Positions 2,489 to 17,898 of a stretch of DNA of 64,000 bases are shown piece by piece. The notes below the pieces were generated by a model. The model had not been told where the DNA came from, searched no databases, and saw only the letters and a program-made list of their open reading frames with translations. Made by a program: the position numbers and the translations under genes. This DNA comes from Candidatus Latescibacterota bacterium (lineage in GTDB: Bacteria > Latescibacterota > UBA2968 > UBA8231): assembly GCA_965206595.1 (NCBI GenBank), contig OZ242214.1, forward strand, positions 4,480,001-4,544,000, in the 5' to 3' direction. Position 1 is the first letter of the stretch, and every line of letters begins with the position of its first letter.

Positions 2489-3370
2489 TCAGGACCCGGC
2501 GGGGCCCAAAAGCGTGTCGAGTGGGCTCTCGATACGCACCAGGTCCTTCCGCTGCACGTGGGTGTAGATCTCCGTCGTTTTCGAGCTCCTGTGTCCGAGG
2601 AGCTCCTGGATGTAGCGCAGATCGGTCCCCCCTTCGAGCAGGTGCGTCGCAAAGCTGTGTCTCAGGGTGTGCACGGTCACCCGCTTGCGAATTCCCGCGG
2701 CGGCGACCGCACGGGAGAACACCTTCTGCACCGACCGTTCGGTGAGATGCCGTCCTTCCCGGGCTCCGGGAAACAGCCACGTCGACGGCCGGTAAGCCTT
2801 CCAGTAGGACCGAAGATCCTCGAGAATCGCCCTGGGCAGCAGGGTGTAGCGATCCTTGCGCCCCTTGCCCTGCTGCACGCGGATCAACATGCGATCGCTG
2901 TCGATGTCGCTCACCTTGAGACGCACGACCTCCCCCACACGCAGCCCCCCGGCATACACCAGGGCCAGGATGACCCGGTGCTTGGGATTCCGAAGGGAAT
3001 CGAGCAGTCGCAGCATTTCCCGCTGGCTGAGGATTTCGGGAAGCTGGCGACCGCCACGCGGCCTGCGCAGACCCTCCAGGGAGGCGGGCTGCTTAAGGAC
3101 TTCCCCGTAGAGGAAGCTGAGAGCACTGTATAAAATGTTGAAGGCGGAGCGGCTCACCCCGCGGTCGAGGAACCATTCGAGGTGGGACCGCACCTCGTCA
3201 TGCCGTTCCCCCCGGTAGTCCCGTTTCCACTGAAGGAATCGCCGGCAGTAGCCCATGTACGACTTCTGCGTTTTCCTCGCGTACCCCCTCAGCTTCAGCT
3301 CGGACTCGACCCGGTTCAGGATGGCGACCTCTTCGTCGGTCAGGTCTGGATGTCTCCGATAGCGCCGCAT
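2489..3370 (-). CDS. Tyrosine recombinase, integron-integrase-like, with N-terminal SAM-like domain but without the IntI I2 insertion
   Basis: Catalytic R (GLRVGE), K (GKGRKDR), HxxR (HTLRHSFATH), H (LLGH) and Y (EIYTHV) are all present. N-terminal 'LRGYARKTQKSY'. Only 59 aa between KDR and HTLRH. Divergent from a cassette array. Confidence 0.9.
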   Translation of the reverse strand: MRRYRRHPDLTDEEVAILNRVESELKLRGYARKTQKSYMGYCRRFLQWKRDYRGERHDEVRSHLEWFLDRGVSRSAFNILYSALSFLYGEVLKQPASLEGLRRPRGGRQLPEILSQREMLRLLDSLRNPKHRVILALVYAGGLRVGEVVRLKVSDIDSDRMLIRVQQGKGRKDRYTLLPRAILEDLRSYWKAYRPSTWLFPGAREGRHLTERSVQKVFSRAVAAAGIRKRVTVHTLRHSFATHLLEGGTDLRYIQELLGHRSSKTTEIYTHVQRKDLVRIESPLDTLLGPAGS

Positions 3371-3505
3371 GGGCCCGGTTACTCCAAGGCAAAGGTTTGG
3401 CCCTGCCGTAGAGAAAGCCGTGCCAGTCCGACACGGAAACCGGAAATCGTCCTATCTGTCGCAACCGCAATGAGTCACGTCGGATATCCCGAATCGGGAA
3501 AATAG

Positions 3506-3534
3506 TTGCAACTGTTCATCCCGAAACGTACCAT
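3506..3534 (+). promoter_or_regulatory. Putative sigma70-type cassette promoter (Pc-like)
   Basis: TTGCAA (3506-3511), 17-bp spacer, TACCAT (3529-3534), pointing into the array about 60 bp before the first GTTA core. Confidence 0.6.
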
Positions 3535-3565
3535 CGTATCAGATAAGTAACACCCGGAGGCCATT

Positions 3566-3600
3566 ATCCGAACCATTTGTTCGGATTCAATCAGTTATGC
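3566..3600 (+). other. Putative attI-like primary recombination site
   Basis: Inverted repeat ATCCGAAC-CATTT-GTTCGGAT (3566-3586) followed by GTTATGC at 3594-3600, the exact complement of GCATAAC (4542-4548) that ends cassette 1. Confidence 0.65.
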
Positions 3601-3652
3601 GAATTTGCGCTCAGGGTTGACGTAAAGAAATCAAACGAAAGATAGCTACGCC

Positions 3653-4519
3653 TTGAAAGTGACGTTTCTCGGAACATCATCCGCTCCGTCGATGCCTATA
3701 CCGTTTTGCGTTTGTCAGGCGTGCTCAAACGCAAGGCGAGTTGGTGGAAAGAACCTTCGCAGGCGATCGTCCATCACAATCAACGACGAAGTGCTTGTGG
3801 ATATTGGCCCAGACATAGCGACCGCGTCATTCGATTACGACGTTTCGTTGACCGGAATCAGCGTCTGCCTATTGACTCATGCCCACGAGGACCACTTTGA
3901 TGCCGAGTTCATCATATCAAGACACGATGAATACGCAACTATCGTCGCACAGGACATGCTCCTTGCGGGTTCAATCGACGCGCTGAGGTCTATTGACACG
4001 ATTCTAGGCAGAAGGTGCTCGTACGGAAGCATCTTCGATCAAGAAACACAACGTGCCCTGAAGGTTAATCTGTTGACCGTCGAGCCATTCGAGACTCAAG
4101 TTGTCGGTGATTACCGTTTCACAGGATATCCCGCGAGTCACGGCACCGAGAAGGGATGCCTGCTTTACTCAATCGAGCAAGGTCAGCACGCTATATTTTA
4201 TGGTACTGATACATCGATTCTGTCGGAGAGAGTTTGGGAGCATCTTCTGCGCCAAGGCACGCAGTTCGACTTGCTCGTGCTCGATCACACGTACGGCATC
4301 GGTTTCGATGCTAGTCCGGCAGATCATCTGGCATCCGTTGATGTAATAGGCCACGTCGATCGCTTTCGGCGAAACGGTCTTCTTAAGGACAACGCGAAGG
4401 CATACGCGACTCACATTTCGCACGAAGGTTACATGGAGCATGACGAACTCGACGAGTATGCCGAAGCGCACGGTTACAGAGTCGCGTTTGACGGATTGGC
4501 GCTATCATTCAGTGTTTGA
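3653..4519 (+). CDS. MBL-fold metallohydrolase (PhnP-like), cassette 1
   Basis: 'KVTFLGTS..P.PFCVCQAC', HAHEDH metal motif, 'YGTDT', 'ATHISH'. Confidence 0.85.
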   Translation: MKVTFLGTSSAPSMPIPFCVCQACSNARRVGGKNLRRRSSITINDEVLVDIGPDIATASFDYDVSLTGISVCLLTHAHEDHFDAEFIISRHDEYATIVAQDMLLAGSIDALRSIDTILGRRCSYGSIFDQETQRALKVNLLTVEPFETQVVGDYRFTGYPASHGTEKGCLLYSIEQGQHAIFYGTDTSILSERVWEHLLRQGTQFDLLVLDHTYGIGFDASPADHLASVDVIGHVDRFRRNGLLKDNAKAYATHISHEGYMEHDELDEYAEAHGYRVAFDGLALSFSV

Positions 4520-4541
4520 ACAAGACACGAGCGCAAAACTC

Positions 4542-4632
4542 GCATAACAGCACGGTGTTGCGCGGCGGCGCATTCGCGCCTTGGCCTTCGGCAACCCACT
4601 TCGTGGGTTCGCAAACCGGCAGAACGTTAAGC
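4542..4632 (+). repeat. attC-like site 1
   Basis: GCATAAC-agca-CGGTGTTGCG ... CGCAAACCG-gcagaac-GTTAAGC; internal hairpins GGCGC/GCGCC, GCC-ttc-GGC and AACCCAC-ttc-GTGGGTT. Confidence 0.85.
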
Positions 4633-4972
4633 GAAGGCCAAGAGAATTTGATTGTTTTTGTGGAGTATAGATCATGATAGGGAGTGGGAGGGATCGGTAC
4701 TATCCGACCCAGGTCGGCGCTGTTTGAAGAGATGGGCAGCTCGTCGTTTGTGGATTTCCCCACCCCGTCCGGCGCGCTAATACCGCTTGGGCGTTGCGTT
4801 TTACCTGGTTCAGGAAAAAGACGAGATCAATGGGCAGTTGGAGATCAGGACCTGCGGATTGGGAGACCGACGAAAGATGGAGGGCTGAGCAAGGGCGCCG
4901 GACGGCCTCTCCACCGCCCAAGCCCGAGAGTTTTCTCCCATCGTGGTCGGGCAGAGCAGGCCCTCGCTTAAC
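4626..4972 (+). ncRNA. ORF-less cassette 2, candidate structured ncRNA
   Basis: Paralogous to 5044-5381 with no reading frame shared over the full length; 11-bp long-range helix 4765-4775/4895-4905 covaries between the copies. Confidence 0.5.
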
Positions 4973-5050
4973 ACCTGTGTCCCCGGCTCCGGGCCCTGGG
5001 GGCCCCTCGCGCAACCGCTTCGCGGTTCGGGGGCACGGAAGACGTTAAGC
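4966..5050 (+). repeat. attC-like site 2
   Basis: GCTTAAC-acc-TGTGTCCCCG ... GGGCCC-tgg-GGGCCC ... AACCGC-ttc-GCGGTT-CGGGGGCACG-gaagac-GTTAAGC. Confidence 0.85.
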
Positions 5051-5381
5051 GAAGGCAAACGAAGTTTTAAGGATTGTGTGGAGTATAGATCATGATAGGG
5101 TGTCGGAAAGGTCGGTGGTATCCATCGAATGTGGCGCAATTTGCGAGGTGGGCACCTCGTCGCGAGGGACTATCCCCACCCCGTCTGGCGCGCTGTTACC
5201 GACCGTGCGTTGCGTGCCGGTTACGAGATAAAAGCCCATCGGTCGAGATCTCGGAAGCTGGCTCACGATTTAGAGTTGGAATGGAGATGGCTCAGGGAGA
5301 AGGGCGCCAGACGGCCTCTCCACCTCCCAAGCCTGAGAGGTCTTTCTCTTCGTGGTCGATGTGTGCAGGCCCTCGCCTAAC
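5044..5381 (+). ncRNA. ORF-less cassette 3, candidate structured ncRNA
   Basis: Shares blocks GTGGAGTATAGATCATGATAGGG, TCCCCACCCCGTCYGGCGCGCT and AAGGGCGCCRGACGGCCTCTCCACC with cassette 2; helix 5181-5191/5304-5314. Confidence 0.5.
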
Positions 5382-5458
5382 ACCTGTTCCCCCGGCTCCG
5401 GGCCCTGCGGGCCCTTCGCGCAACCGCTTCGCGGTTCGTGGGCACCAAGACGATATAT
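5375..5458 (+). repeat. attC-like site 3 (right core altered to GATATAT)
   Basis: Near copy of site 2 (GCCTAACACCTGT...GGGCCC-tgc-GGGCCC...AACCGCTTCGCGGTT), ending AAGAC-GATATAT. Confidence 0.8.
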
Positions 5459-5550
5459 GACATGGGTTGTCACAGTACCAGTGAAATTCGACAGAGGCAA
5501 AGCTGGCACGGTTGAAATCATGAGCCTGCAGGCGCTGGAGAAAAACTGAC

Positions 5551-6042
5551 GTGGATCGCGTAGCCGTATTCGCAGATGTACAGAATGTTTACTACACAGT
5601 TAAGCAGCAACATAATTGCCATTTCGACTATGGTTCTTTCCTCAGGGAGGCGACAGCCGGCCGGAAACTGGTGAAGGCAGGAGCCTATGCTATTGACAAA
5701 GGCGACAGAAAGCAGGCCCAATTTCAGCAAATTCTGAAACGGCTCGGTTTTGAGGTAAAGCTCGCGCCTTATATTCAGAGAGCTGACGGCTCAGCCAAAG
5801 GGGACTGGGACGTGGGCATTACGGTCGATATGTTGGAGTACGCAGATCGCGTGGATGTCGCTGTCCTGGCTTCAGGTGACGGAGACTACGCGCCTGCAAT
5901 TGACAAGCTAATCAAGGAATCCAAGGTATCCGTCGAGGTGTACGGTGTCCCAGGACTAACTGCTAGTCGTCTAATCGAATCGTCGACGCGATTTGTGCCA
6001 ATTCAAGGAGATCTGTTGCTGCCTATTCCCACCACGTGGTGA
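5551..6042 (+). CDS. NYN domain (LabA/DUF88, PIN-like) protein, cassette 4
   Basis: 'VAVFADVQN', 'KGDWDVGITVD', 'LASGDGDY' acidic motifs. Confidence 0.88.
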   Translation: MDRVAVFADVQNVYYTVKQQHNCHFDYGSFLREATAGRKLVKAGAYAIDKGDRKQAQFQQILKRLGFEVKLAPYIQRADGSAKGDWDVGITVDMLEYADRVDVAVLASGDGDYAPAIDKLIKESKVSVEVYGVPGLTASRLIESSTRFVPIQGDLLLPIPTTW

Positions 6043-6130
6043 CGTGGAAGCGACACTGTTGCAAAGCCATGCACGCTAACGCACTCTCGCGTCGCTACCT
6101 CTCTGCGTTGATCAGCCTTGGAGCAATCAT

Positions 6131-6161
6131 ACCCACGTCATATATACGGAAGACGTTACCT
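6131..6161 (+). repeat. Collapsed attC-like junction between cassettes 4 and 5
   Basis: ACCCACGTCATATAT (complements the cassette 4 start) directly followed by ACGGAAGAC-GTTACCT; internal arms absent. Confidence 0.6.
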
Positions 6162-6190
6162 GCCATGGCAGTGCCCAGAAGGAGAGACAC

Positions 6191-7323
6191 ATGAAGGCCC
6201 TGACATCCATTATCGCCGCCTCAATCCTTCTCCTCTCGCCCATCCTCGCCCACGAACGAGAAGAACCCCCGGAGGGAGCCGTGGCCCGAACCGTCCTGCC
6301 AGACGCCAAGATGCCGATCATGAACGAGCACTCCCGTTCCACCCTTGTCTGCGCGATGTACGCCCTGCTGCCGGCTCTCGGGCAACAGGGCTGGTCGATC
6401 CCTCGACTGGAAGCGCTGACGGGATACGCCTTCTACTTTCAGATGCGGGAGGGCGGCGAGTCGGTCTTCGACGACGATCTCGATTGGGGCCTGGCCATGC
6501 ACGTCCTCGACATCTTTGGTCAAGCGAAAGTCTATGATGCGGACAAGAACTCGGACGTTGATCTCCCTGCGCTCAAGGCCGAAGCGCGAGACGCAGTCGT
6601 CGCCAGCCTGGAGAACGGACTTCCCAGCCTCGTCTGGGCGCCACTGAGCCTGGAGCAGAGGGGCAAGGTCCATTTCGCATGCTGGGGCCTCATCGTCGGC
6701 TACAACGCGGCAGACGAAACATACTTGATCCGCCAACCGGCCGAGAAGCTCGACTACCCGGTCCGCTTTGACGCCATCGGGTTCGCCGATCCGAGAGATT
6801 GGTTCCGCGTCGGCACCTTCAAGCCGAAAGAACTTGACGACAACGCTCTGCACCTCACCTCACTCCGCAATGCCGTCGCCTTCGCGAACGGCACTCGCTA
6901 CGACAACCCCCCAGGTCCGTCGAGGCCGCCCTCGTGCATCCCCCGAAAAACCCCTATGGATTCGCCGCCTACGAGCTCTGGCAGGAAGCGTTCGAATCTG
7001 ACGTAAATCTGAACGCCACGTTCTTCCACACAGAAACCCTGAAACCGCGTAGAGAGGCCGCGGCCGCCTACCTGCGGGAGCTCACCCATGTCTATCCGGC
7101 CGCCGCCAATCCGCTGGAAGCAGCAGCCGTTCACTATGATCGAGAGGTCGAATCCATCACCGCAATCTTCGACCTGTGCGTTGCCGCCACCAAGCACGAG
7201 CCCAAGGCCTTCACCCCCGACCAGCGCGCCGAAACCCGCTCCCTCATCGCCCAGCCGTTGAAGGCCGACCGGGCCGCCGTGGCGCAGATCGAGGCCGCGC
7301 TCAAGATTCTGGAGACGCCGTGA
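6191..7323 (+). CDS. Secreted hypothetical protein (possible BtrH/C39-peptidase-like fold), split by a frameshift near 6940; cassette 5
   Basis: Signal-peptide-like N-terminus; ORF 6191..7006 overlaps ORF 6934..7323; 'WGLIVGYN' motif; both parts lie in one cassette. Confidence 0.6.
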
Positions 7324-7407
7324 GGCAGGCTCAGCGTGCTCTTGACCGGGGCCCATCGTGAGGGGGGAGTACGCTGTTTCTTTGCCGATTCTCAAACTGC
7401 CACAGGC

Positions 7408-7490
7408 AGGTAACACGTCCGTGCCCGGCTTCGGGCTTACGCCCTTCGCGCAACCGCTTTCGCGGTTCGGGCACGGCGAAAACGTTATGT
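7408..7490 (+). repeat. attC-like site 5
   Basis: AGGTAAC-acgt-CCGTGCCCG ... GGGC-ttac-GCCC ... AACCGC-tttc-GCGGTT-CGGGCACGG-cgaaaac-GTTATGT (perfect 9-bp L arms). Confidence 0.88.
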
Positions 7491-7538
7491 GACATGGAAT
7501 AACTACCCCTAGATGAAATTTTCGCTCTACGAGCTATA

Positions 7539-8345
7539 ATGACAGAAGCAAAAGTTCTCTCACAAGATGACCTCGACCACTTCGAGACACATGGCTACAT
7601 CATTTTTCGCGGCGCATTTGATCCAGATGACTGCCGGCAGATGGAGGACATTGTCTGGCGTTGGTTGGAACGGCATGGTATCATGCGGAACGACCCCAGC
7701 ACCTGGGATCGGAATCAGGCAGGTGGGCTAAGCCGGACGGTTCGATCTACCCGTGTATTTCGCGATGCAGTATCAGAGCAGTTCGTATCGGCGATCGATC
7801 AGCTGTTGGGAACAGGTAGTTGGGAGAAACCCCGAGATTGGGGCAGTTTTGTGTTCTCGTTCCCCGAAGCCCTCGATGAACAGTGGAATGTCGCTAGCGG
7901 GAATTGGCACTGGCGCAACTCGGGTCTCCGCAACGTGGATAAGCTTGATGGGCTTTTCAATTTCTCGTTCATAACCGAGGTTCAATCTCACGGCGGTGGA
8001 ACGCACATAGCCGACGGGAGTCATCACCTGATAAGGCACTTCTACCGCACGCAAGAGAGCCTGTTTTCCCGGAACGACAGGATAGTCAAGAAGAGGTTCT
8101 TTAGTACTCATCCATGGCTCAGGGAACTGACGCAGGCAAGCGAGAATTCCATCACTCGCGTCAGACGGTTTAGGGATCAAACGACTGATGTTAATGGATT
8201 CCCCGTCCGCATCATTGAGTTGACCGGGAAGCCTGGTGACGCCATGATCGGCCATCCACTCCTGATGCACTGTCGGTCAACGAACTGTGCTGACGTGCCG
8301 AGGTTCATGAGGGCCTGTGAAATACACACGACCGCTGACAAATAG
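7539..8345 (+). CDS. PhyH family dioxygenase, cassette 6
   Basis: 'HFETHGYIIFRGAF', 'GGGTHIADGSHH', 'GKPGDAMIGHPLLMH'. Confidence 0.8.
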   Translation: MTEAKVLSQDDLDHFETHGYIIFRGAFDPDDCRQMEDIVWRWLERHGIMRNDPSTWDRNQAGGLSRTVRSTRVFRDAVSEQFVSAIDQLLGTGSWEKPRDWGSFVFSFPEALDEQWNVASGNWHWRNSGLRNVDKLDGLFNFSFITEVQSHGGGTHIADGSHHLIRHFYRTQESLFSRNDRIVKKRFFSTHPWLRELTQASENSITRVRRFRDQTTDVNGFPVRIIELTGKPGDAMIGHPLLMHCRSTNCADVPRFMRACEIHTTADK

Positions 8346-8377
8346 TTTGGAACCAATCTTCCATTCGGGACCACGTC

Positions 8378-8399
8378 ACATAACGAAGAACGTTTATAC
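8378..8399 (+). repeat. Collapsed attC-like junction between cassettes 6 and 7
   Basis: ACATAAC-gaagaac-GTTTATAC; both flanks match their cassettes' opposite ends but the internal arms are missing. Confidence 0.65.
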
Positions 8400-8454
8400 G
8401 AACTGAGAAAACCAATCATCGTGAATCCGAGGCGAATCAGACAAGGCTTTACGA

Positions 8455-9174
8455 ATGATCCTTGAAGCATTGAATGATCTTTTCACATCAGAATTGCTGG
8501 CTGCCCACCCTGAAGAATGGGGCGTGACCGATCATTGTGATCCGCCTTCCAGCGTAGGGTACGCGACCACGATTACTCCGAGGGCTATTTCGACGGCACT
8601 CGACCGTGGTGCCGACGTAATTGTCACGCATCATGACGCCTGGGATTTCATGTATGAACAAAGAGAGCAGGTATACGATCTCTTACGCGACAACAGCCTG
8701 ACCCATGTATGGGCCCACTTGCCGTTGGACCAGTCCGACTTTGGCACATCGGCTACGCTTCTCTCGAAAATTGGCTGCGTGGAGGTCTGCAAGCCATCGA
8801 AAGGTGAAGTACGCATTGGTGAACTGGATGAATCAACTGACTTCGAGGCGATCCGTTTGAAGCTCGATTCCCTATTGCAGGAACAACCACGTAGCCTCCA
8901 TGATTGGGGTCGAGCCATCCGCAGAATAGGCTGCGTGACTGGGGCGGGCGTCTACACGAGTTACCTCAAGGATGCGATGCCCCATGATATTGACCTTTAT
9001 CTGACAGGAGAGACTAACCTTTACTTATTGGAGTATGCCGTCCACCTTGGACTCAGCGCCCTGGTTTACTCCCACAACTATACCGAGTTGCCAGGAGTCC
9101 ATATGTTCGCAGAGCGTTTTTGCCAAGCTCTTCAACTCGAGATGAAGGGACACCTCGGTGACTCTCACTTCTGA
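8455..9174 (+). CDS. Nif3-like dinuclear metal-centre protein, cassette 7
   Basis: 'ADVIVTHH', 'AHLPLD', 'LYLTGE', 'HNYTE'. Confidence 0.85.
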   Translation: MILEALNDLFTSELLAAHPEEWGVTDHCDPPSSVGYATTITPRAISTALDRGADVIVTHHDAWDFMYEQREQVYDLLRDNSLTHVWAHLPLDQSDFGTSATLLSKIGCVEVCKPSKGEVRIGELDESTDFEAIRLKLDSLLQEQPRSLHDWGRAIRRIGCVTGAGVYTSYLKDAMPHDIDLYLTGETNLYLLEYAVHLGLSALVYSHNYTELPGVHMFAERFCQALQLEMKGHLGDSHF

Positions 9175-9195
9175 TTCGGTAAAGCGACTCAATTC

Positions 9196-9287
9196 GTATA
9201 ACACCGCGGCGTTGCGCTGCGTCGCTGTTGCTCCTTGGCCTCCGGCAATCTGGCAACGCCAGATTCACAAACCGTGAAACGTTATAT
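9196..9287 (+). repeat. attC-like site 7
   Basis: GTATAAC-accg-CGGCGTTGCG ... GCC-tcc-GGC-AATCTGGC-aac-GCCAGATT-CACAAACCG-tgaaac-GTTATAT; same layout as site 1. Confidence 0.82.
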
Positions 9288-9299
9288 GAAATATCTGAA

Positions 9300-10061
9300 A
9301 TGAGAAAAGAAGAATCAATTGACGGAGACTATCTGGCCCCAGCGAAATACGACAAATACTACGACGCGTAGGCTACGCTTCCAGAACGGTTTCTGGCTGA
9401 CCTCGCCTCTCGCGGAAGGGTCCTTGAACTGGAATTTGGAACTGGCCGGATAGCAATTCCCCTGGCGGAGAACGGCCTTGAGGTGACCGGGATCGATTAT
9501 TCCGAGCCGATGGTAAGCCTTGCCAGATCAAAGGCCGAAGACAGACAGGTGAGGGTCGACTGGATCCGCGACGATATACGCTGCTTTGACACCGGTAAGC
9601 GATATGGGTCGATCTTGCTACTGCACAACGCATTATGGCACCTGCACAACCTTTCCGATTTCGAAGAGTGCATTCGCTGTGTGAAGCGTCATCTCCTTCC
9701 GGGTGGTTTCTTCATTTTGGACGTCTTTGTCCCTGGGGTGGAGATCCTCAATCGCGACCCAGGCATTCGGTACCCATTCTCTCGCTACACGGACGATGAC
9801 ACGGGACAAGAAGTGCAGGTTACTCAGTCCTACAGGTATGAAGCAGACACCGAGATCGCGCGCATGGTGCACTACAGAAAGGACTCTGATGAGATCGTTG
9901 GGGGTCTGAATCTCCGGATGTATTTCCCGAAGGAACTGGATGCCTTGCTGAAGTACAACGGGATAAGGATCAAGGAGAAATTCGGGAGCTGGGACCGTGA
10001 CCCCTTTGGGCCGGACTCCAGGCATCAGCTTTGTTTCTGCACCACCATGGAGGACGGCTGA
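9300..10061 (+). CDS. Class I SAM-dependent methyltransferase, frameshifted in its 5' part; cassette 8
   Basis: ATG at 9300; upstream 'VLELE.GTGRIAIPLAE.GLEVTGIDYSEPM' joins ORF 9483..10061. Confidence 0.78.
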
Positions 10062-10334
10062 GCAGCCGGAATCGCATATCGGATATCACTCCAATTCACC
10101 CGGCGTCCGCCGCTCCCCTGAGGCTGTGCCCACCCCGCATGCGCGAGACCGGAATTGTGAGAAAGTCTGGGGACCTTAGGATGAATTGGTCGCGAGATAC
10201 AGGAGATGATACAGGCATGTCCAACCTGAAGGACGGGACCTTCGACAAGCGCGTCGATTACGACCCGGATAGCAATGTTCCTGTCCTGTCCCCGGCATAC
10301 GCAGTGGACTTCGAAGAATTTCGAGAGGTAGGTG

Positions 10335-10870
10335 ATGAAATCTGAATACGTGATGGCGTTGATTTTCGAATTCTGGGCCTTCTGTTGGGACTTCAAGCAG
10401 TAGCCTTCATCCCGGGCATAATGTTGGCGACTTCAGAGCCGTTTTTCGGGGGTTCGCCAACATGGCCGCTCGTGATGCCTCAAGTGCTCGTATGGGTGCT
10501 GTGTCTGCCAGTAGCTTTCGTGTTGTTTCGCTACGAACGATGGCTTGCCAACCTCGTTGTGGCTGAAGACGAGCATCTGGAACTGGCGGGAGTGGCCGTA
10601 GAGACCGCCGATACCCTACCGGTTTTTCGTTTGCTCTTGCGCGTTGTTGGCGCATTCGTTGTTGCCTGGTCGGTGCCCGAGTTGGCCGGTCATGGTTTCG
10701 CCCACGTGATGCTGTACCAGATGAGCGGCCCGCAAATCTGGACTCAGATCGCCCCGGGCGTTGTGAAGCTGGCTATAGGCGTATATCTGCTCAAAGGTGG
10801 GACACACCTTGTACGCTTCGCGTACGGCTCCCAGCCCATATCCGATTACCCAGGAAATGACGAAACCTGA
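10335..10870 (+). CDS. Hypothetical multi-pass membrane protein (5' frameshift)
   Basis: ATG 10335 after GAGGT RBS, shifting into ORF 10385..10870 with about 4 hydrophobic segments. Confidence 0.6.
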
Positions 10871-11005
10871 TTACATGCCAGTCTGGAAAGGCATAAGAAA
10901 GTCGTTTCCGTGAGGAGGTCATTTGTCGTGTAACAGCGCCATTCCGGATGGAGCTTTCACCTTCGCCAGAATGCTTCTTAAGTTCGGGAAACCGGCCGAC
11001 TTGCT

Positions 11006-11362
11006 GTGAGAAGTGCAAGATCAGATCGATCAGAATCGAGGACTCCCGATGAATGGCAGGACAGGTACGTATTTGACACCCAAGGTTACGTGGTGCTTCC
11101 CGACATCCTCACTCATTCCGAGGTTGAGCGCCTCGTCGACGCCTTCCCGAGGGATGACAAAGGCCAGGTCATGCTCGAAGCTCCTGACGACAACTCACAT
11201 CATGACAACAGCATCCAGGGAAGGGTGCTCGATCATCGAGCTCTGATTGAGGCCAGCGTCACCGGCTACCTGGGACGCAGCTGCATGAAGCATCCTGCCG
11301 CCTGGGACATCGGTTCCGTCGGTAGCCTGGGGCCCATCAGGATCGCCCTGATAGGGCACTGA
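11006..11362 (+). pseudogene. PhyH-family N-terminal fragment
   Basis: 'DRYVFDTQGYVVLPDIL' matches the PhyH N-termini in this window; the rest is missing. Confidence 0.5.
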
Positions 11363-11432
11363 TTCTCACCGAATCCGACCGGTATGTCCTCAAGGCAGTA
11401 GGCGATTTGATTGGAAAAAGGGGGCCCTCGAT

Positions 11433-12176
11433 ATGCCAGGTTTCATGTCATGGAAGGAAATGAACTGGCTTCTGCCTGACTTTAATGAGACCGGGTTGAT
11501 CTACCACGGAAGTCAGCCTGAAAATCTGGCTTCTATCTTCCAGAATGGCCTGATTCCCCAATACAATAGTCCCAGAGATGGGCACGAAACAATCTACAAT
11601 GCACACTACCGGTACCGGCCCAAGTCCATTCCAGACTGGGTGGATCCGAGACGATGTATTTTTGGTTACATGAACCGGGCCAGGCAAGGAGGCTGGGGCG
11701 GCATTGTGGATGGAATAGTCAATGGTGTAACCATTGGCATTAAAGCAGCAGATCATATCACTGAGCGGACCTGGACAGCCTGCGTCCGGTTTTCAGATAT
11801 GGTGGACTGCCCGGAGGAGGCAGGGTACTTCGATACGGAGGAGAGAAAAGCCTTTTTCAAGGACAGAATGGAACCGGTTTCGTGTAAAGCATACTGGGAG
11901 ACCAGCCTCTCATTTCACGATAACTTGAAGATTCGCCTGGATCATTTGCTCCCGATGCAGGGAAATCATGAGCTATTGATTTGTTCGGAGATTGATCCTG
12001 GGTTACTAAATCTTCGAGGGTTCAGAGTGCGGGGGGCAAATGGAACACGCGAGGTTGTCAGCAATGACCTGTCCGAGGTGTTTCTGAATGCCGAAGAAAA
12101 GCTTCGGAACAACATGCCAATTGTGGGGGAACTGAAGGCCGTCAGCGAATTCTGCGGCCGTTCGGCCAGCGCCTGA
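11433..12176 (+). CDS. Hypothetical protein with ADP-ribosyltransferase-like N-terminal motif
   Basis: 247-aa ORF with 'IYHGS..ENLASIFQNGLIP'. Confidence 0.6.
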   Translation: MPGFMSWKEMNWLLPDFNETGLIYHGSQPENLASIFQNGLIPQYNSPRDGHETIYNAHYRYRPKSIPDWVDPRRCIFGYMNRARQGGWGGIVDGIVNGVTIGIKAADHITERTWTACVRFSDMVDCPEEAGYFDTEERKAFFKDRMEPVSCKAYWETSLSFHDNLKIRLDHLLPMQGNHELLICSEIDPGLLNLRGFRVRGANGTREVVSNDLSEVFLNAEEKLRNNMPIVGELKAVSEFCGRSASA

Positions 12177-12365
12177 CAACAACGGTTTCCCTTTGAACTG
12201 CGGCGGTATTTGCACGGCCGGGCTCAAAGGTGCGTAACAACCCGGGGAGACCAGAGCCTGGTGACCGCACCCTGAAAGAATGCGGGCAGCTGTGGCGGCC
12301 ATGAAAAACGCAGGTGGGTATTGGCTTGGAGCTGAACCCAACAACGCCAACGAGGAGTCCCGAGA

Positions 12366-12707
12366 ATGAAAGAGATTGCGCCCACACTTCCGGTATCCGA
12401 TGTCCAGAAAGCTGTCGAGTTCTATCGGGGCAAGTTGGCGTTCAGTGTCGGTTTCCAGAATCATCCCGTCTTTGCTTTGGTTCGGCGCGGCGCTGTCAGT
12501 ATCGGTTTGCAGCTTGCTTCGCAGCGACGGCCAGCCGGGACAGGAAGTTGCTACATCTGGGTGGATGATGTCAGGGAAATTTATAATGAGTTGTCCGGAA
12601 GAGGAGTTGAATTCGCAGATGACATCGCGTTTCGCGATGAATATGAAATGACCGACTTCGTCCTCCATGATCCGGATGGGAACCACATCGGGATTGGCGG
12701 AAACTGA
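12366..12707 (+). CDS. VOC/glyoxalase (bleomycin-resistance-like) family protein
   Basis: 'PTLPVSDVQKAVEFY', 'YIWVDDV', 'DPDGNHI'. Confidence 0.88.
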   Translation: MKEIAPTLPVSDVQKAVEFYRGKLAFSVGFQNHPVFALVRRGAVSIGLQLASQRRPAGTGSCYIWVDDVREIYNELSGRGVEFADDIAFRDEYEMTDFVLHDPDGNHIGIGGN

Positions 12708-12807
12708 GGGGGTCATGAATGCGAATCTGGCAGGTTCCATCGCCCTGACTCCACCTCTAAGGCCAATGGGGGTAAAAAGCGGACGTTCTTAGTGGAAGCT
12801 CGATTCC

Positions 12808-13593
12808 ATGGAACTGACCAGAGATGACATTGAAGCGGGCTTTCGTAATCTCGGCCTGAAGGAAGGCGAAACAGTTGAAGTTCATAGCTCATTGAGCAGC
12901 TTGCGCAATGTGCAAGGGGGAGCTGAAACTGTCGTGGATGCCTTGATGAGTGTCGTGGGCGAAAGTGGAGCGTTGGTGATGTCCAACTATCCGCTCACCC
13001 CCCCGATCCCCTTGACTTCCGAGGAGAAATCCAAAGGAATAGGTTGGAAACTCAGAATTCTGACCGAGGACTCAGACGAAAGGACGGTGACCGGCGCCAT
13101 TTCCGACGAGTTTCGCTTCAGAGCTGATGTTGTATGCGGTTCTGGGACCCGTCGTGTCTGTGCCTGGGGCCGGGATGCGGATTTGCACGCCAAGGGATAT
13201 CGACACTTGCTCGAAGTCGATGGGCTGGTTCTTCTCCTTGGTGTAGACATAGATCGATGTTCAAGCATGCATCTCGCCGACGGAGTGAAGGTTACCAAGG
13301 AGGCCAGGGAGCGGATGAATGCAATATGGCCTGATCCAGGGTGCAAAATCACGGACGAAGTCAGGCGGGAATATCCTTCAGATATAATCATTGGCCCCAG
13401 GGAAGGGACATCTGGAAATCCTTGGGAAAATGCCAGACAGGAAGCTGAAAGACGAGGATTGATAAGGAGAGGTAAGGTCGGTCAAGCAGACTGCTTGCTA
13501 TTCAGGGCGAGGGATCTAGTCGGTCTGATTGAGAAAGTTCGTAAATCTGGGCCTTTCAAAGACGCATTGCAGAACATTTTTGACGAGGAATAA
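12808..13593 (+). CDS. AAC(3) family N-acetyltransferase
   Basis: 'LGLKEGETVEVHSSLSSL..VQGGAETVVDAL', 'VLLLGV...SSMHLAD'. Confidence 0.85.
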   Translation: MELTRDDIEAGFRNLGLKEGETVEVHSSLSSLRNVQGGAETVVDALMSVVGESGALVMSNYPLTPPIPLTSEEKSKGIGWKLRILTEDSDERTVTGAISDEFRFRADVVCGSGTRRVCAWGRDADLHAKGYRHLLEVDGLVLLLGVDIDRCSSMHLADGVKVTKEARERMNAIWPDPGCKITDEVRREYPSDIIIGPREGTSGNPWENARQEAERRGLIRRGKVGQADCLLFRARDLVGLIEKVRKSGPFKDALQNIFDEE

Positions 13594-13666
13594 GGATGGC
13601 GCTGATAGCTCAGCGCGGAGAAAGCAGGGCAAAGGTCCAAGACGAACCGCGGCGGACCTGGCCGGA

Positions 13667-15034
13667 ATGACTATGCAATACTTCCAACCTGGCGGCGACT
13701 TCTTCGTCGGCGACTGCATGCCCTTTTACCACGATGGTGTCTTCCGGCTCTTCTACCTTCTGGACGAGGGCCACCACGGAGCACTCGGCGGGTTGGGAGG
13801 CCATCAGTGGGCACAGGCAAGCACGACGGACCTCCTTCACTGGGAACACCATCCGCTCGCCATCCCGATCACCGAGGAGCGTGAAGGTTCCATCTGCACC
13901 GGTTCGGTGTTCTTCCACGAAGGGACATACTACGGTTTCTACGCGACGCGCATGCGCGACAGGACGCAGCATCTGAGTCTTGCGACCAGTCACGAGGGCG
14001 TCCACTTCCAGAAGACCGAACCCAATCCGTTCGCTTCGCCGCCTCCTGGCTACGACCCGGTCCATTACCGTGACCCGTTCGTCTTCCAGGATCGCGGTGA
14101 AGGACTCTTCCACATGCTCGTTACGGCGTGCCTGGAAGACTGGCCCATCGGCGACCGCGGCGGGTGCCTTGCCCACCTGGTTTCCGCAGACTTGAAACAC
14201 TGGGAGAACAGAAAGCCGTTTATCGTGCCGGGTCTGCCGGGGGCGCCCGAATGTCCGGATTATTTCTTCTGGAATGGCTGGTACTATCTCGTATTCAGCA
14301 ACCGCGGGGTCGCCCGCTACAGAATGTCGCGAGAGCCCTTCGGACCCTGGCTTCGGCCGCAGGTCGACGCCCTTGACGGAGCTGCTGCACGGGTAATGAA
14401 GACTGCGCCATTCGGGGACGGCAGGCGCCTTGGTGTTGCCTGGATCGGCACACGCGAGAACAACCGGGACGATGGACCGTTTCAGTGGGGGGGCAACGCC
14501 GTATTCCGAGAACTGATCCAACATGACGACGGCACTCTTGGTGCGAAGTTTCCGGAGGAACTGACCCCTGGCGGTGACCCGCTGTCCGCTCTGCACCTGT
14601 CCGCGCTCGATGCCGATACGAGAGTTGAGGGACGCAGTGTCCACGCAGCAGCTCGGCAAGGCCTGGCAGCGGCCGGCTGTTCCGGCATTCCACGCAATGC
14701 GCGACTGGCAATCCGTGTCCTTCCTCAGCCAGGCTCCCTGGGTTTCGGGCTTCGCCTCCGGGCTGGTGAGACATTCGACTCAGGATGCGACCTGGACTTC
14801 TCACCCTATGACCGGGTCGCCAGGCTGCACGATCAGTGGATATATGGTGTCGATGGACTGGATCGCCCCTTCTCCCTGGAGATAGTTCTCAGGGACGACA
14901 TCATTGACGTTTGCATCGACGGCCGCAGGACGCTTATCGATCGATGTCCGGAAAGGCGGGGCGACCGGATGCTGCTGTATGCGCAGGATTCGGGGGTCAC
15001 GTTTGAGGTTGCCGAGATCGCTGCTCTGCCGTAG
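13667..15034 (+). CDS. Glycoside hydrolase, GH32-like five-bladed beta-propeller
   Basis: 'VGDCMPFY', 'TGSV', 'YRDP', 'PECPDY' catalytic motifs plus a C-terminal beta-sandwich. Confidence 0.82.
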   Translation: MTMQYFQPGGDFFVGDCMPFYHDGVFRLFYLLDEGHHGALGGLGGHQWAQASTTDLLHWEHHPLAIPITEEREGSICTGSVFFHEGTYYGFYATRMRDRTQHLSLATSHEGVHFQKTEPNPFASPPPGYDPVHYRDPFVFQDRGEGLFHMLVTACLEDWPIGDRGGCLAHLVSADLKHWENRKPFIVPGLPGAPECPDYFFWNGWYYLVFSNRGVARYRMSREPFGPWLRPQVDALDGAAARVMKTAPFGDGRRLGVAWIGTRENNRDDGPFQWGGNAVFRELIQHDDGTLGAKFPEELTPGGDPLSALHLSALDADTRVEGRSVHAAARQGLAAAGCSGIPRNARLAIRVLPQPGSLGFGLRLRAGETFDSGCDLDFSPYDRVARLHDQWIYGVDGLDRPFSLEIVLRDDIIDVCIDGRRTLIDRCPERRGDRMLLYAQDSGVTFEVAEIAALP

Positions 15035-15149
15035 CGCAGAGAGAATTGCGGGCCACACCACCCGCCACCAATCCCCAACACCCGGGGAACAGAAGCTGGG
15101 GTTCACAAACAGACAGCCCGTTAGGCGCCAGTCGAGGAAACTCCCGAAC

Positions 15150-15764
15150 GTGAAACGGACGGCCACCAAAATCCCACTCAGGGTGCAGACAACGCGGTTG
15201 GAAACCTTCAACCGCGAACGTCACGCCTGGCCGGTCTCCCTGCGCCGGAAGTGCTCGGCGGATTCGGGGCGAACCTGGGTCTTCACGGATGGTGGCGGTG
15301 ATGGGCGGTTCGGGGCTGTCGTTGTGCGTCCGGGAATCGAAGAACACCGGATGGCGGGACGCCGCGGATCACGGACCAACAGCGTGGTTGCCGAACTCGA
15401 TGGGGTCGTGTTGGGTCTGGAGAATTGCCGACTGGGTGAGAGAATCACGATCGTGTCCGACTATCTGTGGACAGCATACTATATCAACGGCTGGCGCCGC
15501 GTACACCATCCTCGGCTTCGTGAAGGAGTTGTACATGCGAGGAGGCGTCTGGAAAAGCTGCGGGGCGCCGTGTTCGTGCATTACGCGCTGGAAACCGGGG
15601 GCGAATGTGCCTTCAGACGATGGAACGCTGTCGCTCATGACCTGTGTCAAAAGGACATGGTCGGGACCAACTCGCGTACTCCTTGGGACCAGACCAAAGC
15701 GTTGGACATTGTTTCGGAATATCCCCTGAATAGACGGGGACATACCGCATTGTCCCCGGTATAG
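15150..15764 (+). CDS. RNase HI-like protein
   Basis: 'VFTDG', 'TNSVVAEL', 'IVSDY', 'WNAVAH'; start uncertain (GTG 15150 with GAGGA RBS). Confidence 0.65.
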   Translation: MKRTATKIPLRVQTTRLETFNRERHAWPVSLRRKCSADSGRTWVFTDGGGDGRFGAVVVRPGIEEHRMAGRRGSRTNSVVAELDGVVLGLENCRLGERITIVSDYLWTAYYINGWRRVHHPRLREGVVHARRRLEKLRGAVFVHYALETGGECAFRRWNAVAHDLCQKDMVGTNSRTPWDQTKALDIVSEYPLNRRGHTALSPV

Positions 15765-15797
15765 GCAGACACGTCACCTAAAAAGGAAACGCGCAAA

Positions 15798-16565
15798 ATG
15801 GGACACTGCTGGACGCTTGCCCTTGAACAGCAAACGGACCTGACCTCATCCCACGGCTCGGTTTCCGAGTTGGCGGCAGCAGTACGCCGAGGCGCGGATC
15901 TCCGGCTTTACATGACCACGGATCGGTACGAGGAAACCCTCTACTTCCAGCAGACTTATGCCGGTGAGAATGGCGCGTTCGCAGGGCTGATGAGCCACCA
16001 CCACAGCTACGTGCACCGCGGCCAGGACATAGAGCAACCATACATCAGCATCTTCAAATACGACGACTCCGGGAGCTTCTCCCACGTGAAGTGGATGTCG
16101 GGTGATGTGCGCATGGATGAGAGCCAGGCCTATTCGTACGGGATATATCGGTGGTTTATCTGCGACCGCTGGCGAACCGTCTACGAGCACGATGCCGATG
16201 GCAGTCCCGTGCGCGGAAATCTGGAGGAACTGAAAGAGCATGTCCGGCTGGGGCACTCGGTTCAGGTAGGAGTCCGCCAACTGTTCGGTTTGGCCGAGGA
16301 TACCACTGCCGGGCCATCGCACATCTCGTTTGTCACCACGATGCAGCCGCTCATCCGGGATGCCCATGTGCAGTCCAACTGCGACCTCGTTGCGATAGGC
16401 GCCCCGAAATGGCCGTGCACCTGGCGCGACGGCCTCCATGTGGCAGTGATGCTCCCCTCCACGTCCGGTGAGATTCTTTGCTTCCTTGCCGAACCGGGGA
16501 ATCTCCCGTTTAGACGGGTCATGCGCCGGCGCCCCATGCAGTGGATGGTGGCGGAGATGGAGTGA
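15798..16565 (+). CDS. Hypothetical protein with an internal two-fold repeat
   Basis: AAGGA RBS; 'WTLALE...GSVSELAAAVRRGADLRL' resembles 'WRTVYE...GNLEELKEHVRLGHSVQV'. Confidence 0.7.
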   Translation: MGHCWTLALEQQTDLTSSHGSVSELAAAVRRGADLRLYMTTDRYEETLYFQQTYAGENGAFAGLMSHHHSYVHRGQDIEQPYISIFKYDDSGSFSHVKWMSGDVRMDESQAYSYGIYRWFICDRWRTVYEHDADGSPVRGNLEELKEHVRLGHSVQVGVRQLFGLAEDTTAGPSHISFVTTMQPLIRDAHVQSNCDLVAIGAPKWPCTWRDGLHVAVMLPSTSGEILCFLAEPGNLPFRRVMRRRPMQWMVAEME

Positions 16566-16645
16566 ACGCGCGAACCGTTGAATGAACCGCCAAACCCGGA
16601 ATGGGGAACAGGAAAGCGTTGCCGCCGGGAAACCAACCGAGGAAT

Positions 16646-17094
16646 ATGCCAGGAAAACCGATCCAGGTGCTTGTGATTCCATTCCGCATGGGATCTGAGC
16701 CGGAGTTTGCGGTTTTTCACCGTTCCGACGAGGAGATGTGGCAATTCATTGCCGGCGGCGTTGAGGACCGGGAAGACGCAATGCGGGCCGCCCGGCGGGA
16801 GGCGGAAGAAGAGGCGTCCATCCCGAGTGATTTGCCGTTTGTGCGGCTGGATTCGGTTGCTTCCGTTCCCAGGACAGCATTTGAAGAGACGGAGCACTGG
16901 CCGGAAAATCTGCTCTTGTACCCGAGTATTCGTTCGCTGTCGATGTCGGCGACCGAGAGCTGGTGCTATCCTTCGAACACGACGAGGTGAGGTGGGTGCC
17001 TTACGACAAAGCCCGGTGCCTCCATACATGGAACAGCAATCGGGTGGCGCTCTGGGAGCTCAATGAAATGAAAGCCTGCCGCAGACAACAGTGA
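16646..17094 (+). CDS. NUDIX pyrophosphatase, frameshifted near 16915
   Basis: NUDIX box 'GGVEDREDAMRAARREAEEEA'; C-terminus 'PEYSFAVD...EHDEVRW...SNRVALWEL' in a shifted frame. Confidence 0.75.
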
Positions 17095-17239
17095 GGTCTT
17101 CCAGAACTTTTCTGTAGTCTTCCGGGTTCGTAATTCCACAAATAAATCGCTATTCGCCTTGACGCTGATCAGGAGGTCCGAGGGCAGTTTCATTGTTTGG
17201 GGATAATTGGTCCAAACCTTGAGACAGGGAGAAAAGGAA

Positions 17240-17640
17240 TTGTTCGCAAAACTCTTCGTCGTATGCCTCATTGTTGTCGGTTCATGTTTCGGAGTCCAGG
17301 CTGAGCGTCCGGCGGGAATGGTGCTCTATTTCAAGTCCGGAGACGAGGTATTCCTGCTTCTCGCGGATCACCGGGAAAAGGACAGAGGTTGGGCCGGTTA
17401 CGGAGGCGGTCCGGATGAGGGGGAGAGCCAGGCTGAAACGGCGGCGAGAGAAGCGGAGGAAGAGACGAGAGGCTACTTTCTGCGGGATGATCTGCTCGAC
17501 ATGATCAAGGGACAGGAGTCAGTGATAGACAATGGCTTTGCCTTGTACTTCGCGGAAGTCCCCTTTGTTCCCGCACAACTTGTGACCAACAATCCACTTC
17601 CCAGCGACGATGAATCCTACGTTGAAAGAGGTCCGTATGA
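17240..17640 (+). pseudogene. Signal-peptide-bearing NUDIX hydrolase, 3' truncated
   Basis: 'GGGPDEGESQAETAAREAEEETRG'; sequence stops looking like protein after about 17640. Confidence 0.6.
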
Positions 17641-17898
17641 GGGAACGATCGGAGGCGCCTGTAAAGCGTCTTCTCGACCCACTCGCCATCCAGCAAAAGG
17701 GCATACCTGTCCGGAAAACTCAAGTTTTCCTCGCCGGAAAAAAATTGGCCCCTGCATTACGCGCAGGCGCGAAGACCTGACTTTGGATGTGTTGCGTAAC
17801 GAAGGGGCCGTTCTTTTATGCTTGTTCATAACGGCATATCCGGTAGTGCGGTTCGTCAAGCAACTATCTCCAATGCGATATAAACGTTTCCTATTCCC

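Follow-up and report, generated by a model that had tools for sequence, protein, structure and literature searches.

The window, by which we mean the whole 64,000-nucleotide stretch of Candidatus Latescibacterota DNA that was analyzed, holds an array of single-gene cassettes and, divergent from it, a gene for a 293-aa tyrosine recombinase (2489–3370, reverse strand; PF13495 and PF00589) that is IntI-like without the IntI-specific (I2) segment. All other features described here lie on the forward strand. The array opens with an attI region (3566–3600)—an 8-bp inverted repeat (3566–3573 and 3579–3586) with a 5-nt spacer, a 7-nt spacer (3587–3593) and a crossover G at 3594—that forms the junction with the first cassette and whose motif is kept in six related arrays, with compensatory changes within its repeat. 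As in integrons, a recombinase gene adjoins the array, and the insertion site is at the first junction, where cassette C1 starts (3594).

Seven cassettes (C1 to C7) follow, and the two ends of each are complementary, in the untranslated part of the cassette. In C1, the left arm (R′ plus an extension, 3594–3612) pairs with the right arm (extension plus R″, 4529–4548) with a score of 14.5 (19/20 nt, one bulge plus a mismatch). The corresponding arms are 4626–4639 and 4959–4972 in C2 (14 nt, 93%), 5044–5056 and 5369–5381 in C3 (score 8.0, two A·C mismatches), 5452–5467 and 6131–6147 in C4 (11.5), 6155–6172 and 7396–7414 in C5 (13.5), 7484–7497 and 8371–8384 in C6 (11.5), and 8392–8407 and 9188–9202 in C7 (10.5). 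Since C2 and C3 are paralogues, with 74% identity between their bodies, the window offers six independent cases rather than seven. An eighth cassette, C8, begins at 9281; its left end has no partner within the window and is followed there by no further match to R1, our covariance model of the attC core.

R1 recognizes five attC sites in the window: that of C1 in array context, from R″ of C1 to R′ of C2 (4542–4632, 76.3 bits), and those of C2 (4966–5050, 67.9 bits), C3 (5375–5458, 62.9 bits, with GAT instead of GTT as R′), C5 (7408–7490, 80.6 bits) and C7 (9196–9287, 58.4 bits). In alignments A1 and A2, such sites are imperfect palindromes that start with R″ (..AAC) and finish with R′ (GTT..), enclosing an L″/L′ stem in which all four predicted pairs show changes on both sides, and at most sites the L stem and a branched loop stand between the arms. 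The other two junctions, C4–C5 (6148–6154) and C6–C7 (8385–8391), have 7 nt between R″ and R′, the former without L boxes or loop. Among the public runs, examined as contigs, X10, X13 and X14 bridge both short junctions, and a contig of X15 departs from the window sequence at 8384, at the C6–C7 junction. At C4–C5, the homologous cassette of another genome (G103, locus L038) has a full attC. Altogether, R1 has 71 matches in seven arrays. The genome of the window has 13 matches, five of them in the window, and such sites thus also occur away from any recombinase gene; neither the six canonical arrays from this phylum nor the two class 1 arrays that were scanned contain a match.

A recombinase without the I2 segment

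The IntI-specific segment is thought to define integron integrases. Against TIGR02249, the NCBIfam integron integrase profile, the recombinase reaches 223.6 bits where the curated cut-off is 265, and it does so in two stretches (profile positions 1–179 and 235–315) that leave positions 180–234 unmatched. Its best match among solved structures is VchIntIA (2a3v, E = 2.9e-45), in an alignment that passes from query residue 187 on chain residue 178 to query residue 206 on chain residue 239, so that the stretch of 2a3v between residues 179 and 238 is represented by merely 18 residues. Relative to seven canonical IntI proteins from the same phylum, it has three gaps of 16, 15 and 10 columns (about 41 residues), and R131, K156, H262, R265, H288 and Y297 are invariant columns. 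By each of these comparisons—the profile, the structure and the same-phylum proteins—the additional domain containing the I2 helix region is absent. In a quick tree search, with an SH-aLRT value of 85 for the key branch, the recombinase clusters with a Xer-like, I2-less family outside canonical IntI. Of 168 genomes from the phylum, 17 encode a protein above the TIGR02249 cut-off; the genome of the window (G000) does not.

Pairing between the two ends of each cassette

A preliminary description of this DNA had proposed that each cassette has its own terminal inverted repeat, and all seven end pairs are indeed present where it placed them. In a 7 × 7 matrix of the ends, own pairs score 8.0–14.5 (mean 11.6), whereas the 42 non-own pairs average 4.5 and peak at 10.5 for a paralogous combination, the left end of C3 with the right end of C2. 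However, an unbiased anchored scan of positions 3400–18200 returned 19 pairs scoring at least 10, of which five were those described and 14 lay off the junctions. The length of a pair is by itself within chance; what exceeds chance is that an end finds its partner at the other end of the same cassette.

The same holds across the attC family to which the window belongs. When boundaries were set independently with the covariance model, 38 of 62 own pairs from seven arrays scored at least 9. Only 2.2% of the 3762 non-own combinations reached this score, as did 2 of the 71 hybrid pairs formed in array context. Adding a second set of eight arrays from other genera—six of them flanked by an I2-less recombinase gene or its remnant—and setting aside the cassettes that failed an R-box filter (14 of 62 and 10 of 37, respectively) gave 75 cassettes from 15 arrays, a count that overstates independence because related arrays have homologous cassettes in common. 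Here, own-end pairing extends to about position 17: at positions 12–17, own ends form on average 4.04 of six Watson–Crick pairs versus 2.07 for shuffled partners, the observed value being reached in none of 2000 shuffles, and there is no excess by the same comparison at positions 18–23. Own pairs outscored shuffled partners in all 2000 shuffles at positions 5–7, 8–10 and 12–17, and are Watson–Crick at the variable positions 5–7, 9–10 and 12–17, whereas array-context pairs match solely at the conserved positions 1–4 and 8, and partly at 12–13. The 75 cassettes have 74 distinct 17-nt left ends. Terminal inverted repeats of a transposon or MITE were rejected, as the arms differ between cassettes to this extent and abut a conserved recombination core rather than a duplicated target.

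This covariation also bears on whether the arms are ordinary double-stranded recombinase sites, lox- or dif-like, that resemble each other by consensus and not through intrastrand pairing. Conserved positions 1–4, 8 and 11–13 do resemble a protein-binding consensus, the recombinase is Xer-like, and at both short junctions a 7-nt spacer lies between two arms. We nevertheless regard this as very improbable, because a consensus cannot explain cassette-specific covariation at variable positions and because the two arms that flank one crossover in the array mismatch at precisely those positions.

A fixed mismatch and a modest strand preference

In 61 of 75 cassettes, position 11, counted from the crossover G, has a top-strand A in the left arm opposite C in the right arm, which is T·G on the bottom strand, while top-strand G·T at this position was seen in 0 of 48. 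The earlier claim that mismatches are A·C on the top strand and wobble pairs on the bottom is borne out at this position. Elsewhere, A·C and G·T mismatches are about equally common, so the evidence on strand rests on one conserved position, whose asymmetry could instead reflect protein contact. The second array set, considered separately, repeats the pattern, with A·C at position 11 in 23 of the 27 cassettes (out of 37) that passed the R-box filter and pairing frequencies of 0.52–0.85 at positions 12–16.

The preliminary description had also held that the stem exists only for matched ends, and had suggested folding the bottom strand of rejoined junctions. The bottom-strand hairpin is indeed more stable with own ends rejoined (−31.3 kcal/mol) than in array context (−25.0 kcal/mol), with a mean gain of 6.3 kcal/mol and an improvement in 60 of 64 cases. 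For the outer stem alone, the values are −13.2 kcal/mol on the bottom strand, −12.1 on the top strand and −4.2 with shuffled partners; the bottom strand is better by 1.1 kcal/mol, in 58 of 75 cassettes versus 17 of 75 for the top strand. The bottom strand is thus favored, though modestly. These values argue against an RNA-level element, in which the 5′ and 3′ ends of a transcript would pair for stability, termination or translation control. The arms do sit in untranslated cassette ends, but the sense (top) strand is the one that has the A·C mismatch and folds worse, and the arms abut the recombination core exactly, which makes this the most far-fetched of the explanations that we weighed.

Comparison with canonical cassettes

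Long end complementarity had been described as going far beyond a canonical limit at the 7-bp R box, and such a limit does not hold. Among 53 cassettes beside canonical IntI genes—with boundaries from a crude detector of our own, 82 of 135 candidates having failed the R-box filter—the frequency of own-end pairing falls from 0.91 at position 8 to 0.57 at position 9 and 0.45 at position 10, pairing fades beyond positions 8–10, and there is a tail of 9–14-bp arms. A difference between the two groups does stand at positions 12–17, where at least five of six pairs form in 35 of 75 cassettes of the attC family and in 0 of 53 canonical ones, but it is not absolute: seven distinct class 1 and class 2 cassettes have end scores of 5, 7, 8, 8, 10.5, 12 and 14, and end pairing reaches 12–17 bp in some class 1 cassettes. 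Long arms therefore do occur with an I2-bearing integrase, and the contrast with canonical cassettes is one of degree.

The inner stems also differ. No bulged base was found in the L stem at 51 of 71 attC-family sites, compared with 3 of 53 canonical sites, the alignment used for this count spanning about 10 columns in the family, so that a distal bulge could be missed. The L″ side has an additional base at 45 of 53 canonical sites; in the top strand it is mostly C or A, hence G or T in the bottom strand. Extrahelical bottom-strand bases in the L stem, a hallmark of integrons, are accordingly lacking at most family sites.

As to how the ends come to match, four cassettes could be compared between two contexts, and in every case the inner attC on the downstream side has the higher similarity (0.72–0.90 vs. 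0.44–0.69) and so travels with the gene. Joints at 3590/5452 and 4619/6153 in an X15 contig, with sides of 21–29 nt, weakly support a crossover in R′. Together with the preference for own ends, these observations place the crossover on the R′ side, so that a cassette has an R″ of its own along with the 3′ portion of the R′ that lay upstream. Pairing between the ends of a cassette is what a crossover inside R′ leads one to expect, and no new principle is involved: the stem is roughly twice as long as is usual and has a fixed mismatch, and the split-end logic itself is normal for integrons.

The outer complementarity might also be a passive relic, if attC sites were born as long palindromes whose unselected outer part decays with time. 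Pairing frequency in the family does drop gradually, from 0.90 at position 12 to 0.50 at position 17, and the canonical tail of 9–14-bp arms fits such decay. We find this improbable in view of the fixed A/C at position 11 and the conserved G8, of pairing that stops at a common point, about position 17, in 15 arrays that each come from a different genome, of 74 distinct arm sequences that still pair, and of an architecture repeated in a second, more distant array set.

Discussion

The joint explanation that we favor, and consider rather probable, is that the two terminal inverted repeats of a cassette together make up the outer (R) arm of its own attC hairpin, and that the length of this arm serves the roles outlined next. 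At integration, a crossover inside R′ (G↓TT) would split the arm: the left end of the cassette would begin with TT and the 3′ half, and the right end would have the 5′ half, after which come the L boxes and the loop. Only in the excised circle, or when the ends pair in single-stranded DNA, would the two halves reunite. The long arm may provide the recombinase with a full 11–13-bp duplex binding arm, as in Xer- or Cre-type sites, while the fixed wobble would weaken the top-strand fold and so aid the choice of the bottom strand and of the R end. In canonical integrons, this choice would be the task of extrahelical bases docked by I2, the role of both being described in PMC7790495 and PMC4792948. 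Because only matched ends complete the arm, the recombinase should act more readily on free circles than on hybrid sites within the array, a preference that would favor capture and keep the array stable.

Alternatively, the ends could pair across the whole integrated cassette while it is single-stranded—on the lagging-strand template, or in incoming transforming or conjugative DNA—uniting the two flanking crossover points for excision, and act there rather than in the free circle. The same own-end complementarity applies, and 17 bp at about −13 kcal/mol could close a loop of 0.3–2 kb. We think this unlikely as the main role, as long loops pay an entropic cost and compete with strong local attC hairpins, although our data do not separate it from pairing in the circle and both can hold together.

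The array is close to canonical integrons, with which it shares a divergent recombinase gene and an array of single-gene cassettes, the order R″-L″...L′-R′ with AAC/GTT triplets, the R′-side crossover, left ends that belong to the cassette's own R″, and a bottom strand that folds better than the top. Hall and Stokes reportedly noted in the 1990s that the start of a cassette matches its own inverse core. The array differs in an R arm of about 17 bp instead of 7–10 bp—R boxes being defined as heptanucleotides in the relevant section of PMC2727003—in the fixed top-strand A·C at position 11, in L stems mostly without extrahelical bases, and in a recombinase without the IntI-specific segment that falls under the TIGR02249 cut-off. 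Similarly, the recombinase has the same catalytic residues as the enzyme in the VchIntIA–VCR synaptic complex (2A3V), where the I2 helix docks extrahelical bases, but those bases are mostly missing from the sites described here. Core-type sites of Xer, Cre and Flp consist of 11–13-bp inverted arms around a 6–8-bp spacer. The present arms resemble them in length, in a conserved outer-arm motif and in a recombinase that groups with Xer-like I2-less enzymes, and C6 with its own ends rejoined would read 14-7-14; unlike them, the arms vary and covary between cassettes, which points to a folded single strand, and at most sites an L stem and branched loop intervene. Finally, an integron finder for which this domain of IntI is obligatory would probably class the arrays as CALIN, defined in the pertinent part of Cury et al. 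2016 (PMC4889954) as clusters of attC sites without an integron integrase. R1-type sites away from any recombinase gene do fit that label, whereas the array in the window has an intact recombinase next to it and an attI-like junction at its start.

In the literature searched, we found no published description of such long-stem arrays. What we observe is an attC family with an arm of about 17 bp, served by tyrosine recombinases without the I2 segment, in which L stems mostly lack extrahelical bases. The link between stem and I2 suggested in the preliminary description thereby gains correlative support, and it is as a correlation that a replacement of I2 by the long stem may be entertained. More tentatively still, and with the balance in our estimation tilting against it, this could be natural integron-type gene capture by a recombinase that never had, or dispenses with, the I2 helix, site recognition and strand choice then depending no longer on extrahelical bases in the L box but on a long R arm with a T·G wobble that is complete only in the cassette's own circle. 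If so, I2 would not be needed for single-strand attC recombination, and the I2-less family would be either a living relative of a pre-integron state or an independent solution.

Results

The window contains a low-GC island from ~3500 to ~17900, with about 50–60% GC versus 65–72% in the surroundings, and a gene for a 293-aa tyrosine recombinase lies on the minus strand at its left edge (2489–3370). Rightwards from 3594 runs a plus-strand series of short, mostly single-gene units, in which MBL-fold, NYN, PhyH-like, NIF3 and methyltransferase domains were recognised, and which are separated by imperfect palindromes of 83–92 nt starting with ..TAAC and ending with GTTA... This layout is integron anatomy: units C1–C7 correspond to cassettes, C2 and C3 being paralogues, and the palindromes to attC-like sites. 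Cassette C5 (6191–7323) contains two overlapping ORFs in different frames (6191–7006 and 6934–7323) without an obvious join; one base at 6912 is missing in contigs of sequencing runs X13, X14 and X15 and present in X10, and C5 in the window may carry a frameshift of this copy. The island runs on for 8 kb beyond the last attC detected, through a stretch (9281–17900) with co-oriented genes where a covariance-model search of the window gave no match. An attC-like end (..GTTAGGCGCC) lies near 15120, and the stretch, which also follows the homologous array of the related genome G103, may consist of decayed cassettes.

The preliminary description had assigned to each of C1–C7 its own terminal inverted repeat, and all seven pairs were found in place. 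Scores for a cassette's own ends ranged from 8.0 to 14.5 (mean 11.6), and the 42 non-own combinations averaged 4.5. A pair of 13–20 nt is unremarkable in itself, because 14 of the 19 anchored pairs scoring at least 10 in an unbiased scan of 3400–18200 are meaningless; the signal is positional. We fetched the arrays adjoining orthologous recombinases (74–97% identity) from six related genomes and used 31 sites to build R1, a covariance model for the attC core with a hand-set structure. Other routes were rejected: RNAalifold on a plain MAFFT alignment recovered just 4 L-stem pairs because two attC subtypes were out of register, detection by an L-stem score of at least 8 missed 4/5 window sites, and constrained folding energy alone passes nearly all AAC...GTT pairs in GC-rich DNA. 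R1 found 71 full-length sites, all within the window and the six related arrays. No such site was found in six arrays that adjoin canonical IntI genes in this phylum, in two class 1 arrays or in eight additional flanks. Since a cassette was taken as the stretch from one R1 match to the next, boundaries are independent of end pairing. Across these seven arrays, 38/62 own pairs scored at least 9, as did 2.2% of 3762 non-own pairs and two of the 71 array-context pairs (R'' of a cassette with R' of the next).

Pairing was counted by position, outward from the crossover G along the R arm, in the 48/62 cassettes with at least 6 of 7 pairs at positions 1–7. It is 0.88–1.00 at positions 1–9, 0.62 at 10 and 0.08 at 11, returns to 0.90 at position 12, declines to 0.50 at 17, and is at background (about 0.25) from 18. 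At position 11, 38/48 cassettes (61/75 with a second set added) have a left A facing a right C, and this A.C on the top strand, the sense of the cassettes, is T.G on the bottom strand. G8 is nearly invariant; positions 5–7, 9–10 and 12–17 are variable and co-varying. Shuffling partners abolishes pairing at 5–7, 8–10 and 12–17 (the observed value was reached in 0/2000 shuffles) and changes nothing at 18–23. We conclude with high confidence that the repeats represent a lengthened R arm divided into two halves, and that its pairing is under selection.

For comparison, 80 loci encoding canonical IntI were collected from many phyla and their attC sites called with a simple stem detector. This detector is noisy, many arrays giving own scores of 3.0 that reflect wrong boundaries, so that candidates failing the R-box filter (at least 6 of 7 pairs at positions 1–7) were left out; the canonical set comprises the remaining 53/135 cassettes, drawn from 20 arrays. 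In the canonical set, own-end pairing drops from 0.91 at position 8 through 0.57 at 9 to 0.45 at 10, and is at background from 11. Of the six positions 12–17, five or more are paired in 0/53 canonical versus 35/75 R1-type cassettes. Own scores are 6–9 in canonical arrays of the same phylum, and 5, 7, 8, 8, 10.5, 12 and 14 in seven distinct class 1 and class 2 cassettes. In class 1 arrays on plasmids (L052/L051), the blaGES-5 cassette has own-end pairing of 16–17 nt. In the same arrays, the own ends of aac(6')-Ib4 pair over 12–13 nt and those of a small unnamed cassette over 18 nt with three mismatches, and both own-end mismatches of aadA1 are A.C on the top strand. Canonical cassettes of L084–L163 have top-strand mismatches at positions 9–10 that are A.C 12 times and G.T three times, an excess that fits bottom-strand folding just past the heptamer. 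An arm of ~17 bp with a fixed mismatch is thus a family trait of R1-type arrays only, whereas mobile integrons have mixed arm lengths.

R1-type sites occur in 54/151 sampled genomes of the phylum, many of them far from any recombinase. The second set consists of eight further arrays from other genera, in which 27/37 cassettes pass the R-box filter, A.C occupies position 11 in 23/27, and pairing is 0.52–0.85 over positions 12–16. A first search of the flanks of 45–57% identical recombinases (L039–L046) found no arrays, but arrays were found in the same genomes on the other side of the recombinase, co-oriented with it. Six of the eight second-set arrays closely follow, in the same orientation, a recombinase gene or fragment more similar to that of the window than to canonical IntI; these R1-type arrays (L168, L169, L165–L167, L170) follow genes or remnants of the 45–57% identical recombinases, which lack I2, the IntI-specific helix segment. 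They are co-oriented, whereas in the window's clade the recombinase is divergent from the array. In genome G099 (L012/L040, L066/L081), a canonical IntI with 8-bp cassette arms coexists with an I2-less recombinase, 1.4 kb downstream of which lies an R1-type site.

In the window recombinase the catalytic residues are retained, and three gaps account for about 41 missing residues, among them the IntI-marking segment KYPN...EW.WQ.VFP. A tree of 40 proteins from a quick maximum-likelihood search groups the recombinase with a large I2-less family (50–60% identity) outside canonical IntI, the separating branch having an SH-aLRT of 85 and the outgroup branches being long. In L-stem alignments, 45/53 canonical sites have an additional L''-side base, which is mostly C or A on the top strand and corresponds to an extrahelical G or T of the bottom strand; 51/71 R1-type sites have no bulge.

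Own-end complementarity alone cannot discriminate crossover in R' from crossover in R''. Four cassettes are seen in two contexts, and in these the downstream inner attC is kept with the gene (0.72–0.90 identity) and the upstream one is not (0.44–0.69), which places the crossover on the R' side, as in canonical integrons. In folding with DNA parameters, rejoining own ends stabilises the bottom strand by 6.3 kcal/mol relative to the array site (60/64 cases), and the bottom strand exceeds the top in stability by 2.8 kcal/mol (55/64); the outer stem alone gives a bottom-strand advantage of 1.1 kcal/mol (58/75).

Two junctions in the window (6148–6154 and 8385–8391) consist of R'', 7 nt and R', without L boxes or loop. 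They are not an assembly slip, because both are bridged by contigs of sequencing runs from three additional studies, which cover most of the region. All run data are Logan contigs, and contigs that belong to other organisms are recruited by the attC repeats. Runs X10–X12 are possibly the source sample and are not independent; the small-share runs X1–X9 were left out and carry no information on habitat. Homologous cassettes in G103 (L038) carry a full attC. Rejoining of own ends would turn a short-junction site into a 14-7-14 palindrome that resembles a duplex core-type site. Candidate origins are hairpin deletion, L-box or second-strand cleavage, and duplex-type recombination with attI. Two further short junctions in related arrays (reverse-complemented L037, ~4620–4640; reverse-complemented L033, ~8440–8460) carry a 5-nt spacer (..aagca directly before GTT) otherwise found before the crossover only at attI, a pattern that suggests exchange between the R'' side of a cassette and attI. 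Within 3566–3593 of the window, attI has an 8-bp inverted repeat (..CGAAC-N5-GTTCG..) lying 7 nt before the crossover G, whose halves change together in related arrays (ATCC/GGAT, ATGC/GCAT, ACCC/GGGT), so that pairing or dyad symmetry is kept. Other cassette orders are seen in X15 contigs, where one joint links attI to C4 and another links attC1 to C5; both joints fall at predicted crossover points, and their sides are short (20–29 nt). A search of the run contigs for excised circles listed no circle junction.

Discussion

According to two studies (PMC7790495, PMC4792948), I2 prevents a second strand exchange by docking the extrahelical bases, and its acquisition was the innovation that enabled integrases to recombine folded single-stranded attC. 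We propose that the long R arm would be a full-length binding arm for the recombinase, and that the wobble at position 11 could mark strand and end in place of the device formed by I2 and extrahelical bases; this function is inferred from anatomy and correlation. Less probable alternatives, in descending order of probability, are pairing across the integrated cassette, an unselected relic, duplex binding arms and an RNA role. Our searches of open full texts brought up no account of attC arrays next to I2-less recombinases, nor of an R arm that exceeds the heptamer.

The comparison also bears on canonical integrons, in which own-end pairing extends beyond position 7 to positions 8–10; together with the long class 1 arms, it follows that the textbook 7 bp understates ordinary integrons. 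Integron finders that require an IntI-specific domain will miss systems such as the one described here, or file them as integrase-less clusters. The R-arm pattern provides concrete positions for mutation (8, 11 and 12–17). Finally, the R1-type system is a natural test of the view that I2 enabled recombination of folded single-stranded attC, because its sites are attC-like, its cassettes have ends of their own and its crossover is the usual one, although its recombinases are I2-less and the bases docked by I2 are mostly missing from its sites. As a replacement for I2 and these bases, the long co-varying R arm with its one fixed mismatch is the most obvious candidate.
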